Positions 32,984 through 41,068 of a stretch of 64,000 bases of DNA are shown one piece after another. The first letter of the stretch is position 1. Each line of letters begins with the position of its first letter. This DNA comes from Candidatus Kaiserbacteria bacterium RIFCSPHIGHO2_01_FULL_53_29 (GTDB taxonomy: Bacteria; Patescibacteriota; Minisyncoccia; Phycocordibacterales; UBA2100): assembly GCA_001781125.1 (NCBI GenBank), contig MFKT01000009.1, positions 10,712 to 74,711 on the forward strand, read 5' to 3'. The notes under the pieces were generated by a model. The model ran no database searches and was not told the DNA's origin. It saw only the letters and a program-made list of their open reading frames with translations. The position numbers and the translations under genes are program-made.

Positions 32984-34894
<1,911 letters not shown>

Positions 34895-35036
34895 AACTTT
34901 TTTAATATTGTTATTCCTTTCACTACTAAACCTCTAATAATCGGCATTATACTTAGATTTTTGATGTTGTCAAGCGATTTAATATTGGGCGGGCGAGGAG
35001 GCATTTTTGAAGCCTCCTCCCCGCAACTTCGCCCAA

Positions 35037-35393
35037 TCAGTCGCAAACCAAGTGCCTGCACGTGCGGCCGGCGATTGCGCCACGGTTGCAAAAGCGCGGA
35101 TTGCGCGTTTCCTCCAAGCGCAGTTCCCTGCACTTGAATTCGCGCGCACGTCGAAGCGGAAAATTACCGCAGACGTTCGCGTGGGGCGGATAGCCGCGGA
35201 TAACGTGCCCGGTCGCGAGCCGCACAACACCGTCGGCATCCGCAACCGCGACCGGCGGGTACTGCTTCCCGCGCACATCGACACAAGGAAGCGCGATACG
35301 CAGCGACTCGCCGGGTTGCAGCGCGACCTGTTGTGCACTTGCTGCGCCAGCGACTGCGCAAAAGGCGATGATTGTAAAGATCACTTTTCTCAT
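35037..35393 (-). CDS. small secreted Cys-rich protein (119 aa)
   Basis: GGAGGA SD. Signal peptide MRKVIFTIIAFCAVAGAASAQQ. Five Cys in the mature part. Confidence 0.45.
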   Translation of the reverse strand: MRKVIFTIIAFCAVAGAASAQQVALQPGESLRIALPCVDVRGKQYPPVAVADADGVVRLATGHVIRGYPPHANVCGNFPLRRAREFKCRELRLEETRNPRFCNRGAIAGRTCRHLVCD

Positions 35394-35570
35394 GGCTTCC
35401 TCCATCTGGTTACTCACGCGGGTGCGTGAATTTCATGAAAGCCTGAACGGATACCCTACATTGTGATATCCATTCAGGCAATGACGAAAAAAGAAACAAG
35501 GGGGCTGAGAATCATCTCAAACCCCCCTGCCAGTGCAACGCCGCGTACGGCGCTGTAGAGTTGTTTCCGC

Positions 35571-36008
35571 CTACTTGACCCAGCGGTTCGGGCACCTCTC
35601 GTTGCCGTTAGGCAACTTGAAGCAACCCGGGTCCCCGGGCCGGCCCTTGACGAGCCGGTAGCCCTGGGTCCCCGCGACCCGTTGGGTGTCGGCGTTCGGC
35701 TGGTGGCCGCCGATTTCGTAGACGGGACCGCCACCCGTCGCCTGCTGACCGCCACCTGTGACGGTCTGCTGGCCACCACTAGGCGGGGGCGGAGGTAGCA
35801 GGTTCCTTGCCGCCAGCTGCGCTTCGAGGGCGGCGATCCGCGCCGCACCCGCCGTGTCGGCGGGGGACTTGCCGAAAGCCCATTGCCAGGTTGCGACACC
35901 CAGCCAGACAATCAGCACCACCGCCACGACAGCGATCGCGAGCCGGCCGAGCCCGCGGAAGAAATCTCCCCACGTCGAGGTGGGGGCAGTCCAGTGTGCG
36001 TCTGTCAT
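35571..36008 (-). CDS. membrane-anchored secreted protein with C-terminal CFKLPNGNERCPNRW motif
   Basis: N-terminal transmembrane helix. PPPPP linker. Gly/Gln-rich region. The C-terminal motif is shared with ORF 37449..37826. Confidence 0.45.
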   Translation of the reverse strand: MTDAHWTAPTSTWGDFFRGLGRLAIAVVAVVLIVWLGVATWQWAFGKSPADTAGAARIAALEAQLAARNLLPPPPPSGGQQTVTGGGQQATGGGPVYEIGGHQPNADTQRVAGTQGYRLVKGRPGDPGCFKLPNGNERCPNRWVK

Positions 36009-36168
36009 TTCTGAAGGCCCTCCTTGGGCCGGGTTGACGAAGAACGAGAACCAGCAGAATGCCAGTTCATAGCGGCATTATATCACCAATATTGATACTG
36101 TCAATAGTAAAAAGGAAGCGGCGCCGTGACGCCGCTTTGAGTCGAAAATGTGCAGTGTTTTGGCGCTG

Positions 36169-36969
36169 TTACGCCACGGCCCGTTCCTTCGGCACGTTGT
36201 CCAGCCGGAAATCGGAATGACCGGTCCGTTTGAACAACACGTCATATCCGTCGGGAACGATGTGCGTGAACGAGCCGCCGGGAAGCACGCTCACGTACTG
36301 CCCCGGTGACGTGCCCGCGACCGCGAGCGGCGGCCGTCCGGCGACGAGCCTCGCCTTGGGCTCATCTCGTGCTGTTGTCACCTCTTCGTGTCGCGTGTGC
36401 GGCGGGGCGGCACTCCGTTCGCCGAACCAGAAGAACGCGCTGGTGGCGACGACGACGATGCCGGAAAAAGCAAACGTCACGTAGATCCAAAGGAGGCTCG
36501 GGTCGCTGAACGCGAACTCCCTCCAGAAGTGCACAAAGCCGGTGAACAGGAGCCATCCGAGCAGCAGCACGGATGGCACCACGTCGTACCACCACAGGCC
36601 ACCGTGGCCAGGATTGGCGTAGGCCGAGATGCGTTCGGCACTCAGCCAAGCCCCGAGGAAGACAAGGGAGTACACCGCCGGCTGCAGCGGTACCGCCTTA
36701 CCCTTCCATGTGATGCTGATACCGAGGTCGGCCATGTTACCAACCCAGATCAGCTGGTAGATGTACCACGCGACGATTGCGCAGAGCGCAGCCGACAACG
36801 TGATGGCGATAAATCGACTGAAGTTACCCATTTCGCTCGCTCCTTCTTTTGCGATCTGTTTGGGTTTGATAAGAACCTTTGCTCCGCCGGGCCATACATA
36901 GTCATAGTCCGGCGGAAGGCGTGTCTTTTCGGTCACGGCTCCCTCCTTACTTGCGGTCGGAGCCGTCAC
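36169..36969 (-). CDS. hypothetical membrane protein (266 aa, 4-5 transmembrane helices)
   Basis: GC3 bias. Overlaps the upstream ORF by 23 nt. Confidence 0.45.
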   Translation of the reverse strand: MTAPTASKEGAVTEKTRLPPDYDYVWPGGAKVLIKPKQIAKEGASEMGNFSRFIAITLSAALCAIVAWYIYQLIWVGNMADLGISITWKGKAVPLQPAVYSLVFLGAWLSAERISAYANPGHGGLWWYDVVPSVLLLGWLLFTGFVHFWREFAFSDPSLLWIYVTFAFSGIVVVATSAFFWFGERSAAPPHTRHEEVTTARDEPKARLVAGRPPLAVAGTSPGQYVSVLPGGSFTHIVPDGYDVLFKRTGHSDFRLDNVPKERAVA

Positions 36970-37234
36970 CGGCCGGCCCGATTACCCTTGGCAGAGCGTT
37001 CGGTTGCGGGTCCTTGGGCGGCGGAATCGCCGTAGCGTTACCGGCCATGACCGCACGAAGAAAACGGTCCTTCATGCGTGGGGTCGGTTCGATCTGGACG
37101 ATGGGGCCGCCGTAGCGCCGAAGATCGAGGAAGAACTTCGGCTCGAGAACTATTCCGTAAGCTGATGCAGCCTCAGATTCCTGCGTCGTTGAATCAAGCG
37201 GCACGGGTTTGCCGTGCTTCAGGTCGTCAGGCAT
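36947..37234 (-). CDS. hypothetical protein (95 aa), translationally coupled to 36169..36969
   Basis: The overlap arrangement suggests an operon. Confidence 0.3.
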   Translation of the reverse strand: MPDDLKHGKPVPLDSTTQESEAASAYGIVLEPKFFLDLRRYGGPIVQIEPTPRMKDRFLRAVMAGNATAIPPPKDPQPNALPRVIGPAGDGSDRK

Positions 37235-37448
37235 TGTAGCCTCACTTGTTGTGCTCCTTTCGGGAGCGGTTGCACTATGCTCGTCCCGCGTTTCAGGCGC
37301 GGGAACCGCCGATATTCATACAGGGAAAGTAGCACCGTGTCAAATCAGGATCAAAAAATTTTGCTGCTATCCGGAAATTTTTATAAAAAGGAAACGACGT
37401 GCACCACCACTGTGATGCACGCCGCTGAAGAGTTGCCGCCTCGAAATC

Positions 37449-37826
37449 TTACTGGTTCGGGCAACGCCGAATTCCGGTCGGCAGGGTGAAGCAGCTCGGG
37501 TGGTTGGGTCCGACCGACCTTCCCGTGCCGACCCTGTTCACTGCCCGCCACTCGGTGCGACGGGTCGTGGTCTGAGTCGTACGACTGCCACCCCGCATCA
37601 CCTGGCCGCCGTATCCCCTTCGGTGGGCATTTTGTTGTTGGCCGCCTTGGTGTGTAGTGCTCCGGTGCTTTTGCGGACACTGGATCCGCATCCCCCACCG
37701 GTTAGTGCAACTGGCATACCGGTGTTGCTGCGCCACCGCCTCGGTCGTGAACGAAACCGGAGCCGGAGCGAGCAAAAACGTACCTGCGATCGCGAGAGCG
37801 ACAAACGAAACTTGAAACTTGCGCAT
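37449..37826 (-). CDS. small secreted protein with C-terminal CFTLPTGIRRCPNQ motif (start MRKFQVSF)
   Basis: GGAGAA SD. Signal peptide. The mature part is Gln/Thr/Arg-rich. The ORF opens at 38144 but the earlier part lacks a signal peptide. Confidence 0.45.
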   Translation of the reverse strand: MRKFQVSFVALAIAGTFLLAPAPVSFTTEAVAQQHRYASCTNRWGMRIQCPQKHRSTTHQGGQQQNAHRRGYGGQVMRGGSRTTQTTTRRTEWRAVNRVGTGRSVGPNHPSCFTLPTGIRRCPNQ

Positions 37827-37904
37827 GATTTTCTCCCTTGCGCTGCCGCAAACTCCCCATCGGAGTTTCAACGGACTTACAAGAATGATACATCTAAAAT
37901 GACC

Positions 37905-38885
37905 GGACGTCAAGGGGTCGTAATGGTTCAATAGCTTGGAACCACCCGTGGCTCCAATATGACGTACATGGCATACAGCAAGAATCCAGAGCTCCCGAAG
38001 GTGCGGCGGGAAGCGGTCCGGTTGGTCAAACAGGAAGGATGGTCGACAAGGAAAGTGGCACGGCACTTTGGGTACACGCACAGCGCGATCGTGAAGTGGT
38101 GCGCAAAGGATCCGACAGGAGGGTTCAGACGAATCGAGACGCAATCATCGAAACCGAAGAGAAGTCCTCGGGCACTCTCGCGCGACGTGGTCTCGGCCAT
38201 CATCAAAGAACGAGTTGGCAGACGGCGGTGCGCCGAGCATGTGTACCACGCGCTCGTGAAGCATGGAGTCGGAGTATCGCTCTCGTCCGTGAAGCGCACG
38301 CTCGACCGATGTCATTTGCGCAAGAAACGCAGTCCGTGGAAGCGTCCGCACGACTTCACACCGCGACCGGAGGCGGCCTTCTGTGGAGCCCTGCTTGAGC
38401 TCGATACCATCCATATCATCGCACCGGACGGCTCAAGGATATACATATACACCATCATCGATCTGTATTCGCGGTGGGCGTACGCAGAGGTGGTGGAAAG
38501 AATCGGCGCGCACCGAAGCGCCGGGTTTGCGCGCAGAGCACAGGAGGCTGCACCATTCCGCTTCGTCATGGTCCAAACAGACCACGGGAGCGAGTTCTCA
38601 ACCCGCTTCACGCATCGTCTCCTGCAAAAAGATATTCACCATCGACACAGCCGTGTCCGACAGAAAGACGACCAAGCCCACATCGACCGATTCAACCGCA
38701 CGATCCAGGAAGAGTGTCTGGATCGGGTCACGCACACCGTCGCATCATTCAAACGTGCCCTGCCTCCCTATTTGCGTTGGTACAACACCGAGCGTACGCA
38801 CATGGGGATCAATTATCAAACGCCCCTTGATCTGGTTCCAAGGTCTTGACCTTATTTAGGGTCTGGTAAAAACCCCGCTTGAAAG
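37905..38885 (+). mobile_element. IS481-family insertion sequence (approximate ends; only weak terminal inverted repeats TCAAG-GGGT seen)
   Basis: A transposase gene with short flanks. Ends could not be defined confidently. Confidence 0.45.
37959..38849 (+). CDS. IS481-family (IS3 superfamily) DDE transposase
   Basis: N-terminal HTH. rve integrase core. C-terminal LPPYLRWYNTERTHMGINYQTPLDLV is typical of IS481. Confidence 0.8.
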   Translation: MTYMAYSKNPELPKVRREAVRLVKQEGWSTRKVARHFGYTHSAIVKWCAKDPTGGFRRIETQSSKPKRSPRALSRDVVSAIIKERVGRRRCAEHVYHALVKHGVGVSLSSVKRTLDRCHLRKKRSPWKRPHDFTPRPEAAFCGALLELDTIHIIAPDGSRIYIYTIIDLYSRWAYAEVVERIGAHRSAGFARRAQEAAPFRFVMVQTDHGSEFSTRFTHRLLQKDIHHRHSRVRQKDDQAHIDRFNRTIQEECLDRVTHTVASFKRALPPYLRWYNTERTHMGINYQTPLDLVPRS

Positions 38886-38928: not shown

Positions 38929-39210
38929 TCAACGGTCTTGGGCGCCGTGGAAAATGCCAAGAATAATTACCTCACCTTTTCCTCTCCTCAACTCATACAC
39001 GATCACAAACGGTAAACCTTTGACCAAAAGTTCATACGTACGTGGCGCAGAGCCGATCCGACCCATGCGCGGGAAAAGACCGAGGGAGCGAACGGTGAGA
39101 TGGATACGAACAACAACGCCGACCGCTGCCGAGGGATTTTGATCTTTTATGTATGAATATATTTCCGCAATGTGTCTGCGTGCTTCAAGGGTGTACTGGG
39201 GGTCCTTCAT
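38929..39210 (-). CDS. parE: ParE/RelE-family type II toxin
   Basis: 93 aa. C-terminus VIILGIFHGAQD is typical of ParE. 4-nt overlap with the upstream antitoxin. Confidence 0.75.
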   Translation of the reverse strand: MKDPQYTLEARRHIAEIYSYIKDQNPSAAVGVVVRIHLTVRSLGLFPRMGRIGSAPRTYELLVKGLPFVIVYELRRGKGEVIILGIFHGAQDR

Positions 39211-39440
39211 AGACCGCAGCCCTTCCAGAGCGCGGCCATTTCTCGCTTTGTCGCCAAACGTGTTTTGCCGCTGCGCAGGTTGCGCTGAATACGTTTTACT
39301 TCTCGGACCTGTTCGTCTGTAAGATGATACTCGGCATTGCCGCTTACCATATGGACAAACAATGCCTGCGCTGCTGCGTTTTGGTCTTCGGCAGGCAACT
39401 CGCGGAGTTGTTCGATCGCTTTTTCAAGCAGTTTTGTCAT
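39207..39440 (-). CDS. type II antitoxin (ParD/addiction-module component)
   Basis: 77 aa. Precedes and overlaps the toxin. LRELPAEDQ motif. Confidence 0.6.
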   Translation of the reverse strand: MTKLLEKAIEQLRELPAEDQNAAAQALFVHMVSGNAEYHLTDEQVREVKRIQRNLRSGKTRLATKREMAALWKGCGL

Positions 39441-39486: not shown

Positions 39487-39504
39487 GTCATTTCCTTCCC
39501 TACC
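39487..39504. repeat. direct repeat GTCATTTCCTTCCCTACC, upstream flank of the ParDE cassette
   Basis: Pairs with 38907..38924. Overlaps the stop of ORF 39500..40375. Confidence 0.6.
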
Positions 39505-40375
39505 TGTTCATTTTCATCTCCCTCCCCATCACTATTGAACGGCCGACATCGAGTGTCTGGCCGACATCGGCAACGTGTCCGACGGCGGCGGTGTGACCGA
39601 CATTGGTGTCATGCCCGACGGCGACATTGCGACCGACATCGACGTCCTTCCCGACATCGAGTGTATATCCCCCATCGACTGCACGACCGAGGGCAAGCGT
39701 CTTGCCAACATTCACGGTATGACCAACGGTAACGTCGCGTCCTAGGTCAACAGCCCGCCCGACAATGATAATTCTTCCGCTTGCAACAGTGTGCCCGACT
39801 TCGATGGGGCGGCTAACGATGACCGTGCGCCCTACATTGGCATCGTACCCCATATCCACGGGGCGTCCGACGATGGCGTCATACCCGACATCGGCGAGAC
39901 GTCCGACATCGGCTTCAAAGCCCACGATAGCGAGACGTCCGACATCGGCGATATACCCGACGGGGAGTGAGCGGCCGACAGGGGCAAGGTACCCGACAGC
40001 AGCAAAATATCCGACATTGGCAATATGACCGACGGGGAGTAAGAAGCCGACAGGGGTGTAACGGCCGACGTTTGCAAAACGCCCGACATTGGCCCTATAC
40101 CCAACACCTACAGAATGTCCTACGTACGCCGACTGGCCGACCAAAGCGCGATCGCCGACCGCAGCTCGGTATCCGATAGCTGCGAATTCTCCTACCGGAG
40201 CGCGGTAGCCGATCGGAACAATTTGCCCAATTTGACTTACACTCGGCGAGGCAAGGACGCAGTCGCACGTTGCCGCGAAGGCGATTTGTGCCGAACCAAC
40301 GAGCGACGCGCAGAGGACTCCCCCAACAAGGGCGGACAGATATATTTTTCTGCTTTTGAGAATGTTGTTAAACAT
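39500..40375 (-). CDS. secreted hexapeptide-repeat protein (about 40 consecutive xVGxxx repeats; predicted left-handed beta-helix)
   Basis: Signal peptide. Near-perfect 6-residue periodicity ([AVLI]-x-V-G-[RYH]-x) from residue about 50 to the C-terminus. Confidence 0.65.
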   Translation of the reverse strand: MFNNILKSRKIYLSALVGGVLCASLVGSAQIAFAATCDCVLASPSVSQIGQIVPIGYRAPVGEFAAIGYRAAVGDRALVGQSAYVGHSVGVGYRANVGRFANVGRYTPVGFLLPVGHIANVGYFAAVGYLAPVGRSLPVGYIADVGRLAIVGFEADVGRLADVGYDAIVGRPVDMGYDANVGRTVIVSRPIEVGHTVASGRIIIVGRAVDLGRDVTVGHTVNVGKTLALGRAVDGGYTLDVGKDVDVGRNVAVGHDTNVGHTAAVGHVADVGQTLDVGRSIVMGREMKMNR

Positions 40376-40378
40376 ATT

Positions 40379-41068
40379 TTATAGTTCGCCGACGAAATCA
40401 GCTTCAAGAATGTAGCGGGCGCTTTTGCCGGTGAGCGTGTCGCAGGTGACGAGTGTGAGCTTGGCGGCTGTCGCGGAGAGATCAATGGTGACATCGTCGT
40501 TGACATCCGCCTTACGTATTGATGTGACGTTGTAGAGGTACGCTTTGCCCCCGCCCTCTATCGTGATGGTGTCTCCGGCTTTCAACTCCGGGATGCGATT
40601 GAACGCACGGAACATTTGGTTGCGGACGATCGGCAGGTGCGAGGAGTGCGCGAAGATTATCATGTTGCCGCTTGCCCCTAGCTTTGCGGAATCCACATAG
40701 CGCGCGGGACCCTTCTGCAAAAGTGTGTCGAGGGCGTTGAGATCTTTCGTCGCCGGGTTTTGGACCGGAAGATCGAGACCGATCGCGGAGATTTTGATAC
40801 GCTCCGGAAGAACTGCGACTACGGCGGGAGTCGCCTGCCCCGTACCTCCATCTGGATTCATTTGGACATTCAATTCGCCCAGCTGCGGGAGATCTGCGAG
40901 AGAGACGACATCTGCGCGTGAAGGTGCTGGGGAACCGTCGATGTAGTTGGGTACGAAACCAACCGAGTCGGCCGCGCTGACCGTACAGAAAAACACCACG
41001 ACGACCGCAGCAAAAAAGACCCGTTTGGGGGGTTTTTGGCGATTTGTGTATTCTGCGGTAGCACTCAT
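40379..41068 (-). CDS. sortase family transpeptidase (membrane-anchored)
   Basis: N-terminal transmembrane helix. Active-site TLVTC and conserved His (IFAHSSH). 4 nt upstream of the hexapeptide protein. Confidence 0.75.
   Translation of the reverse strand: MSATAEYTNRQKPPKRVFFAAVVVVFFCTVSAADSVGFVPNYIDGSPAPSRADVVSLADLPQLGELNVQMNPDGGTGQATPAVVAVLPERIKISAIGLDLPVQNPATKDLNALDTLLQKGPARYVDSAKLGASGNMIIFAHSSHLPIVRNQMFRAFNRIPELKAGDTITIEGGGKAYLYNVTSIRKADVNDDVTIDLSATAAKLTLVTCDTLTGKSARYILEADFVGEL

Follow-up and report, generated by a model that had tools for sequence, protein, structure and literature searches.

What does it mean when two small exported proteins that share little else end in the same cysteine-bracketed motif? 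The question is raised by a gene cluster in a 64,000-nucleotide stretch from Candidatus Kaiserbacteria bacterium RIFCSPHIGHO2_01_FULL_53_29 (contig MFKT01000009.1, positions 10,712 to 74,711), here called the window; coordinates below are positions in it unless another contig is named. Five genes, all on the minus strand, occupy 35037-37826, and two of their products, encoded by the open reading frames (ORFs) ORF2 (35571-36008, minus strand) and ORF4 (37449-37826, minus strand), end in CFxLPxGxxRCPN, a strict motif of 13 residues. A preliminary description of this DNA had compared the shared end with sorting or processing signals of the LPXTG, PEP-CTERM and GlyGly-CTERM kinds and with bacteriocin leader or core modules. 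Here, we provide evidence that the motif belongs to a tail family that is real, rare and undescribed, and that it is the core of a larger conserved C-terminal module of ~35-55 amino acids. A classical sorting signal is not supported for this tail. The reading that we favor, tentatively and with somewhat less than even confidence, is that the tail is a functional mini-domain that binds a conserved envelope or surface ligand as a tethered extracytoplasmic module, and is not a sorting tag.

Results

A shared tail within a larger C-terminal module

A six-frame regular-expression scan of the 64 kb for CF.LP.G..RCPN returned exactly two matches, both on the minus strand: CFKLPNGNERCPN in ORF2 (35586-35624; Cys129...Cys139), four codons from the stop codon, and CFTLPTGIRRCPN in ORF4 (37455-37493; Cys112...Cys122), one codon from it. 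ORF2 and ORF4 are the sole reading frames of the window that end in this motif, and the coordinates and tails first reported for them are correct. ORF2 is a bitopic "tail protein" of 145 amino acids with a short cytoplasmic N-terminus, a transmembrane (TM) helix (~residues 14-46), a short helix, a Pro/Gly/Gln-rich spacer and a C-terminal Cys-loop domain (residues 94-145; 35574-35729, minus strand) that reads GPVYEIGGHQP...GYRLVKGRPGDPGCFKLPNGNERCPNRWVK; the protein ends in ...GDPGCFKLPNGNERCPNRWVK. ORF4, a secreted "tail protein" of 125 amino acids, begins with a signal peptide, which is followed by a strongly basic stretch (net +14) rich in Arg, His, Gln and Thr and then by the Cys-loop tail; it ends in ...HPSCFTLPTGIRRCPNQ. 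A ribosome-binding site and the signal peptide place its true start at 37826, which is also the start of the independently called protein P0006, found on two ENA contigs and also on contig L003, and 100% identical to ORF4; the upper bound of 38144 first given for the cluster was an artefact of a TTG-extended frame that enters an insertion sequence (IS) element.

The BLASTP alignment of ORF2 with ORF4 is confined to the tails, where 11/19 residues are identical (E = 1e-6 for the pair). The two proteins had been described as otherwise dissimilar, which holds for their N-terminal two thirds; further in, profile similarity reaches ~35-45 amino acids upstream of the motif. Twelve of the 39 nucleotides that encode the tails differ (69% DNA identity), with synonymous changes at the conserved Leu, Pro, Gly and Arg codons. 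The tails are old paralogous segments under selection, and not the outcome of recent gene conversion or duplication. A second loop of the same spacing (C-x9-C-P), CTNRWGMRIQCPQ (Cys40-Cys50, residues 38-50, 37677-37715), lies inside ORF4 and is not present in its relatives P0018 and P0021.

A search of 1.84 billion cluster representatives with a profile built from three tails recovered 18 proteins at E <= 1e-3, ~12 of them convincing, and independently retrieved both ORF2 and ORF4 from this library (1.84e9). Two further members were found as tandem neighbours (L018, 957-1508; L022, 331-918), giving 15 distinct proteins with the tail domain in total. We define the family by a C-terminal G-x-[PS]-G-x(2,3)-C-x(6,13)-R-C-[PA]-N, no more than 20 residues from the C-terminus, together with one N-terminal export or anchor segment. 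Both ORF2 and ORF4 fit this definition and score 95.8 and 62.6 bits, respectively, against a hidden Markov model (HMM) of the family, the profile of which includes both. Five positions never vary in the 15-member alignment (the Gly, both Cys, the Arg that precedes the second of them and the Asn that follows Cys-Pro), the Pro is nearly invariant, and the loop between the two Cys is nine residues long in 13 members, six in one and 13 in one. ORF2-type members, among them the ORF2 orthologs P0008, P0013, P0010 and P0016 with the same tail, have ~50 amino acids in common (GP-h-[YFW]-E-h-GG-x-[QKR]-P ... G-[YWF]-x-h-x-KG-x-PGD-x-x-C ... RCPN-x-[WF]), and ORF4-type members (ORF4, P0018 and P0021) ~35-40 (W..V.KVG.GRS..P....C[FW].LP.G.RRC[PA]N). 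All members with genomic context sit in Saccharibacteria-like loci of the Candidate Phyla Radiation (CPR), and in all orthologs and paralogs from other genomes the tail lies 1-19 residues from the C-terminus. The conserved C-terminal element that was first noticed on two proteins with unrelated remainders thus recurs in the same place elsewhere, and its 15 carriers go beyond simple paralogy of two proteins.

A strict DNA pattern, which leaves the looser variants of most members unscanned, found one true locus (L005) in 185,579 species genomes; a second strict-pattern match was a chance match in a 29-codon alphaproteobacterial frame. A scan of metagenome contigs for the tail led only to the Hainich groundwater contigs again, and a further homolog search with a 13-sequence alignment yielded low-complexity candidates and three already known proteins only. 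Nothing credible was found for the tail domain in viral contigs, phage records or plasmid records. No Pfam or NCBIfam domain was found in the tail proteins scanned (ORF2, ORF4 and P0013), none of the cluster proteins (ORF1-4 and ORF95) matched Pfam, NCBIfam, PADLOC or PHROG, and literature searches on the tail motif or the locus found nothing.

Some candidates were set aside. P0001, 91% identical to ORF2, has a garbled tail, perhaps a low-quality sequence end. P0002, the corresponding ectodomain in L003 (ending ...WDCNPNRFARR), looks by eye like a long-loop relative and is absent from the family HMM matches at E <= 10 with filters off. The three-tail profile search also returned P0015, P0022 and P0014, which are eukaryote-like secreted repeat proteins with the same hairpin motif: P0015 and P0022 carry KR-flanked repeats (...DGGCWQLPDGQVRC...), with a chitin-binding domain at the end of P0015, and P0014 has five repeats of ~85 amino acids with GCFxRMPxGCPNxF. 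The motif in these three proteins probably reflects convergence on a C-aromatic-x-L-P-[ND]-G-x-x-R-C hairpin.

Selection and predicted fold

The tail is under purifying selection. By the Nei-Gojobori method, synonymous divergence (dS) between tails is ~1.0-1.2, with synonymous sites near saturation, and the ratio of nonsynonymous to synonymous divergence (dN/dS) is 0.10 for ORF2/P0004, 0.23 for ORF2/P0008 and 0.34 for ORF2/ORF4. ORF2 and P0004 have 20/22 tail residues in common, with nine synonymous codon differences, and ORF2 and its ortholog P0008 are 67% identical over the last 52 amino acids and unalignable elsewhere.

An AlphaFold2 model of ORF2, built on the 13-sequence alignment, has block means of the predicted local distance difference test (pLDDT) of 87-90 for residues 111-145, 78 for residues 101-110 and 44-49 for the spacer, within which the first ~7 residues of the domain fall. 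The model predicts a helix at residues 106-114 and short strands paired across the Cys loop. We envision a fold in which the conserved G-x-P-G-D stretch leads into a beta-hairpin that would be closed by the invariant Cys-Cys pair and followed by R-C-P-N-x-[W/F]; the invariance and spacing of the two Cys suggest that they form a disulfide.

Architecture of the carriers and a proposed role for the tail

In a Kyte-Doolittle scan, all 15 members have a single hydrophobic segment, located at the N-terminus, and none after the motif. Eight are anchored by a TM helix (ORF2, P0008, P0010, P0011, P0013, P0016, L018b and L022a) and two by a lipobox (P0009 and P0020); the other five (ORF4, P0004, P0012, P0018 and P0021) have a signal peptide and a cationic mature part. 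The stretch that joins anchor to tail consists solely of low-complexity, Pro-rich, His/Arg-rich or coiled-coil sequence, and the smallest members are simply anchor and tail, at 85 amino acids (lipobox) and 97 amino acids (TM). The residues after CPN number 1-19 and are mostly polar, and the ectodomain is net positive in every member.

On the reading that we favor, cells display the domain on the outside of the cytoplasmic membrane in three ways. ORF2-type members hold it there through one N-terminal TM helix and a spacer that is Pro-rich or coiled-coil, others hold it through a lipid anchor, and ORF4-type members are free, strongly basic secreted proteins, possibly held by charge. The domain would bind a conserved envelope or cell-surface ligand there, and the locus that hosts the tail gene, which encodes a Cys-rich secreted protein, an AGYTDY-repeat protein and, upstream in some lineages, a sortase, would build a surface structure that diversifies rapidly. 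The ectodomain swap between 99.85%-identical strains described below counts toward a binding role, because such swaps are expected of surface-exposed interaction determinants. The family with its invariant residues, the purifying selection on the tail, the confident part of the fold model, the uniform architecture without cargo, the synteny of the locus and the consensus promoter in front of ORF2 weigh on the same side.

Several observations weigh against this proposal. The tail has no homology or structural match to any binding domain; a profile comparison with PDB gave no match to the tail domain at E <= 10, and Foldseek gave none at E <= 0.001 in PDB or BFVD (best E = 2). The AlphaFold2 model rests on an alignment of 13 sequences only, and the count of carriers covers only 64 kb of this genome. 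The tail domain is replaced in L003, so it is dispensable or replaceable, and the gene at the ORF4 position in L007 is without it; this 118-amino-acid gene is a positional equivalent only (BLASTP E = 0.41). Finally, the very short tethers of P0009 and P0011 argue against reach beyond the wall, and the ligand may therefore sit at the membrane surface and not on a host cell.

A conserved locus with a putative exchangeable cassette

The window carries rpoB, rpoC, dnaE, gyrB, dnaG, SMC and a class II aminoacyl-tRNA synthetase (aaRS), all in compact versions, and is chromosomal. Gene order around the cluster is common to L005 and L007-L012 (Hainich groundwater contigs and an NCBI assembly) and to L016 (an ENA contig); DnaE of the L007-L012 group is 79.5% identical to that of the window, and the aaRS of L016 is 75% identical. 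The window, L005, L007 and L016 have one gene order in common, which runs from the tail gene through the genes for the Cys-rich secreted protein, the AGYTDY surface protein and the aaRS to dnaE; its first two or three genes also occur on the short contigs L019, L018 and L004. Wherever the sequence extends far enough, a secreted Cys-rich gene and then an AGYTDY-repeat gene come after the ORF2-type gene. This Cys-rich neighbour is ORF1-like ("type A") in the window, L007 and L016, and belongs to an unrelated "type B" in L003, L005, L018, L019 and L004. By BLASTP, ORF3 homologs lie directly upstream of the tail gene in L007 (41% identity) and L005; the upstream membrane protein of L016 aligns weakly with ORF3 (27% identity) and gave no BLASTP match. 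Tandem tail paralogs occur in the window, L018 and L022.

Some of these loci hold a further gene pair, which encodes a 615-666-amino-acid protein without a family match and then an acidic protein of ~95 amino acids (L005 485-2485, L016 4925-6772, L013 723-1181). In L005 and L016 it precedes the ORF3-like and tail genes, in L013 the ORF4-type gene P0021 lies just upstream of a gene related to the 615-666-amino-acid protein, and the window is without the large gene.

Over 10.2 kb, from 46008 down to 35840, contig L003 matches the window at 99.85% identity, and beyond that point its DNA is unrelated. The breakpoint (35840; L003 10167 onward) falls just after the TM-coding part of ORF2, and the part replaced in L003 comprises the ORF2 ectodomain, ORF1 and the start of the surface-protein gene. 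In their place L003 encodes a type B protein, a surface protein whose repeats differ, and the ectodomain P0002, which lies outside the family HMM. Contigs L001 and L002, which come from the same population, end at 35676 and 35739, at most ~170 nt downstream of the breakpoint and inside the strain-variable part of ORF2. On scaffold L021 the alternative cassette is 99.9% identical and the backbone around it reaches no more than 71-77% identity, and this scaffold looks chimeric; L020 and L021 both appear chimeric or gapped and count only weakly for cassette exchange. The switch between L003 and the window bears the signature of a surface-exposed, diversifying cassette.

A kept N-terminus with a swapped C-terminal part and next gene is the classic pattern of polymorphic toxin-immunity systems. 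This raises the alternative that the tail proteins are antagonistic or host-directed effectors, namely cationic disulfide hairpins akin to bacteriocins or antimicrobial peptides, which would be secreted or presented on contact; in such a polymorphic cassette, the Cys-rich gene downstream or ORF3 would supply the cognate immunity protein or partner. Such a role would suit the net cationic ectodomains (up to +14, some of them His/Arg-rich), the Sec signal peptides on ORF4, P0004 and P0012, and the strong promoter that ORF2 has of its own. We nevertheless consider it unlikely, since a TM helix or lipobox keeps most members permanently tethered, the loop CFKLPNGNERC is not amphipathic, and searches of the cluster proteins in Pfam, NCBIfam, PADLOC and PHROG revealed no transporter, toxin or immunity family. 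The downstream proteins are soluble and secreted, with cleavable signal peptides, which is atypical for immunity proteins. Moreover, the genes do not come in cognate pairs: the tail family occurs with type A as well as with type B neighbours, and type B also occurs with a non-family ectodomain, so the cassette is not a strict toxin-immunity pair. The tethering of most members and the lack of a recognised transporter or immunity gene in the cluster likewise speak against the bacteriocin leader or core module that had been proposed.

The tail and the nearby sortase

The features that first suggested a sorting or processing signal are easily seen. On this explanation the tail would be an LPXTG-, PEP-CTERM- or GlyGly-CTERM-like element, or one akin to the C-terminal domain (CTD) of type IX secretion system (T9SS) substrates, and would be removed or transferred by a dedicated enzyme such as the nearby sortase. 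The tail is at or near the C-terminus in 15/15 members, the N-terminal regions of its carriers are unrelated, an LPxG-like tetrapeptide is present, and the short, variable extension (1-19 amino acids) after the invariant Asn could mark a cleavage site. The preliminary description also pointed to the sortase, and a sortase gene (40379-41068, minus strand) with a TLVTC active-site motif, assigned by Pfam PF04203 (E = 1.4e-18) and TIGR01076 (above cutoff), lies 2.5-4.4 kb upstream of the tail genes in the window. A syntenic sortase, likewise within ~2.5-4.4 kb, is found only in L003, L007 and L009; the flanking sequence fetched for L005 (8 kb) and for L016 (16.6 kb), two of the four lineages, contains none.

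LPXTG, PEP-CTERM and GlyGly-CTERM signals consist of a short motif, then a membrane-spanning segment and then a basic cluster. Beyond the motif, no tail protein has a hydrophobic segment or a charged, stop-transfer tail. The LPxG string is not invariant (LPNGN, LPTGI, LPSGV, LSNGI, SPSGG, SPTGG, PLTAG and LIGNDG all occur) and reads L-P-x-T-G in no member. With no TM helix after the motif and two carriers in 64 kb, the tail also lacks the features of a PEP-CTERM- or GlyGly-CTERM-type tag, and the sorting-signal models of NCBIfam found no match in the cluster proteins. Copy number per locus is one or two, and the strict DNA pattern identified its single true locus in a species set that includes the Saccharibacteria metagenome-assembled genome carrying L005. 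The motif falls within the Cys-closed hairpin of a confidently modelled domain, and an LPxG at the tip of such a hairpin would be poorly accessible to a sortase. Nor do the carriers have any cargo, only anchor, spacer and tail, which also argues against a folded sorting domain of the T9SS CTD type. Given the lack of a post-motif hydrophobic segment and of cargo, and an LPxG that varies and is never LPxTG, a classical sorting signal is therefore not supported, and we regard a sorting or processing role of any of these kinds as decidedly unlikely.

The locus holds a better candidate for a sortase substrate. The conserved last gene (32984-34894, minus strand; 12/12 promoter at 34946-34973) encodes a 636-amino-acid surface protein with ~15 AGYTDYSNLD decapeptide repeats, long polyQ runs and an Ig-like region, in which IPYTG (SQIPYTGFDFGP) is followed by a TM helix and then, unusually, by ~80 further conserved residues (...PRIVISRN). 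This protein is probably the real substrate of the nearby sortase, despite the atypically long tail after the TM helix.

A reactive loop of the protease-inhibitor (Bowman-Birk or SFTI-like) or receptor-ligand type, regulating an envelope protease, sortase or sensor, is very unlikely: the constrained loop of 6-13 residues with its conserved Pro and Gly turn and variable positions 2-3 after the first Cys, a member reading CTKSPSG... (reminiscent of the CTKS start of Bowman-Birk trypsin loops) and a response regulator and histidine kinase pair in the L016 locus would fit, but there is no sequence or profile similarity to any inhibitor family, the canonical loops that are known have other lengths, the locus has no conserved protease gene and the two-component pair occurs in one lineage only. 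The remaining probability goes to none of these four readings (ligand-binding domain, effector, sorting signal and reactive loop). FtsB/DivIC-like, anti-sigma and pilin readings of ORF2 were dropped on account of no family matches, the wrong locus and no class III signal.

Other genes and transcription signals of the locus

The preliminary description placed all cluster genes on one strand, and every one of them is indeed on the minus strand. Its third Cys-rich secretory protein is ORF1 (35037-35393, minus strand; 118 amino acids), a secreted type A protein with a signal peptide and six Cys in the mature part, which has orthologs in L007 and L009 (37% identity, E = 6e-17) and in L016; a single-sequence structure model of ORF1 was unusable (pLDDT 41). 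The "membrane protein pair" was half right. ORF3 (36169-36936, minus strand) is a multi-pass membrane protein of 255 amino acids with 3-4 TM segments by hydropathy and a soluble C-terminal region, whereas ORF95 (36947-37234, minus strand), a called gene in L001-L003, encodes a soluble protein of 95 amino acids with neither a hydrophobic segment nor Cys. ORF3 had no match in Pfam, NCBIfam, PADLOC or PHROG, and ORF95 no family match in NCBIfam, PADLOC or PHROG.

These genes appear to form separate transcription units. ORF4 stands alone, with a promoter-like site on its 5' side (37885-37913, minus strand; 10/12, just outside the IS inverted repeat) and a terminator-like hairpin on its 3' side (37393-37426, minus strand). 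ORF95 is the first gene of a joint unit with ORF3, which ends at a terminator-like hairpin 3' of ORF3 (36116-36137, minus strand); ORF2 is therefore its own unit, preceded by a sigma-70-type promoter (36077-36104, minus strand) of the form TTGACA-16-TATAAT with 12/12 consensus positions and an extended -10 TG.

Further upstream, an IS481-family element (37928-38849) is placed between a ParE/antitoxin pair and ORF4. It is compact, with 17-nt inverted repeats (37928-37944 and 38833-38849) and a 296-amino-acid DDE transposase (37959-38849), identical in L001-L003 and absent from the syntenic L007 locus. Beside it, within the envelope locus, a ParE-family toxin (93 amino acids, PF05016) and an overlapping upstream partner of 77 amino acids (38929-39440) are likely a type II toxin-antitoxin pair. 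Directly downstream of the sortase lies a gene for a 291-amino-acid secreted protein (39500-40375) with hexapeptide-like VGxxxxVG repeats, a match to PHROG 5353 (unknown function) at 2e-26 and weak left-handed beta-helix matches; a 183-amino-acid ortholog adjoins the sortase in L007. Elsewhere in the window, a 139-amino-acid ORF (58055-58474) has a canonical type IV pilin N-terminus (GFTLIELLVVIAIIG) and is adjacent to an 81-amino-acid ORF with a C-terminal hydrophobic segment.

Discussion

The molecules behind the surface life of CPR/Patescibacteria on host cells are largely unknown, and the genomes of these bacteria are rich in unannotated small exported proteins. Our findings define a compact and tractable domain of ~50 amino acids with one presumed disulfide, and a conserved yet strain-variable envelope locus in a Saccharibacteria subclade. 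If the tail is the binding module of a diversifying surface system, it would offer a handle for ligand pull-down or labelling, and strains could be typed by it. Should it be no more than a structural domain specific to the lineage, it would be a new family of the DUF (domain of unknown function) type, and also a caution that a C-terminal LPxG beside a sortase is not a sorting signal. There is, in addition, a small chance that a recognition module exchangeable as a cassette is at work here, with the Cys-loop tail as its receptor-binding tip. Such a module would be made up of the ectodomain of the tail protein, the secreted Cys-rich protein and the repeats of the sortase-linked surface protein, and would serve bacterial-host recognition or attachment, or phage evasion, in episymbiotic Saccharibacteria. 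If so, strains that are otherwise identical would acquire a different host or phage specificity by swapping the cassette.

Set beside known systems, the tail resembles the LPXTG signals of Gram-positive bacteria in its C-terminal position, its L-P-x-G string and the sortase nearby. It differs from them in that the Thr is missing, no hydrophobic segment or charged tail follows, the string is variable and inside a Cys-closed hairpin, and the anchor is N-terminal instead. Like a T9SS CTD, it is a folded C-terminal domain rather than a linear tag on otherwise unrelated exported proteins. T9SS CTDs, however, are ~80-amino-acid beta-sandwiches on large cargo in Bacteroidota, whereas the tail domain has ~35-55 amino acids and is found on cargo-less proteins, and no T9SS context was seen in the window.

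Polymorphic toxin-immunity cassettes such as CdiA-CT/CdiI, LXG and Rhs likewise keep an N-terminal part and swap the C-terminal part together with the downstream gene; the cassette described here differs in its tiny ectodomain with no recognisable toxin domain or structure match, its secreted Cys-rich downstream products and the lack of one-to-one pairing. Release in the manner of class II bacteriocins would suit the signal-peptide members (5/15), as opposed to the TM-anchored (8/15) and lipobox (2/15) ones. No bacteriocin-family, immunity or ABC transporter match was found in the cluster, and the neighbours that do have matches are a transposase, ParE and the sortase (Pfam).

In topology, the tail proteins recall the TonB and TolA tethers, in which an N-terminal TM anchor and a variable Pro-rich or Ala/Glu/Arg-rich helical spacer carry a small C-terminal domain, and here too the gene for a multi-pass protein lies immediately upstream. 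The similarity is one of topology alone: ORF2, ORF3 and ORF95 have no Pfam or NCBIfam match to TonB_C, TolA or MotA_ExbB, and there is no ExbD/TolR-like single-pass partner, ORF95 being soluble and without a TM segment. CPR bacteria are generally considered to be without an outer membrane.

C-terminal disulfide loops act as binding tips in the D-region of type IV pilins and in "Rana box" and thanatin-type beta-hairpin peptides. The resemblance would lie in a Cys-Cys loop, ~6-13 residues long and with an Asn/Asp-Gly-type turn in its middle, that stands at the extreme C-terminal end of an exported and often cationic protein. ORF2 and ORF4 have no class III signal of the pilin kind, there is no sequence or fold match, and the loop is not amphipathic. 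This family and its locus, undescribed as they are, belong to a familiar general kind: a small, disulfide-stabilised extracytoplasmic C-terminal domain on tethered proteins, encoded in a hypervariable surface locus.

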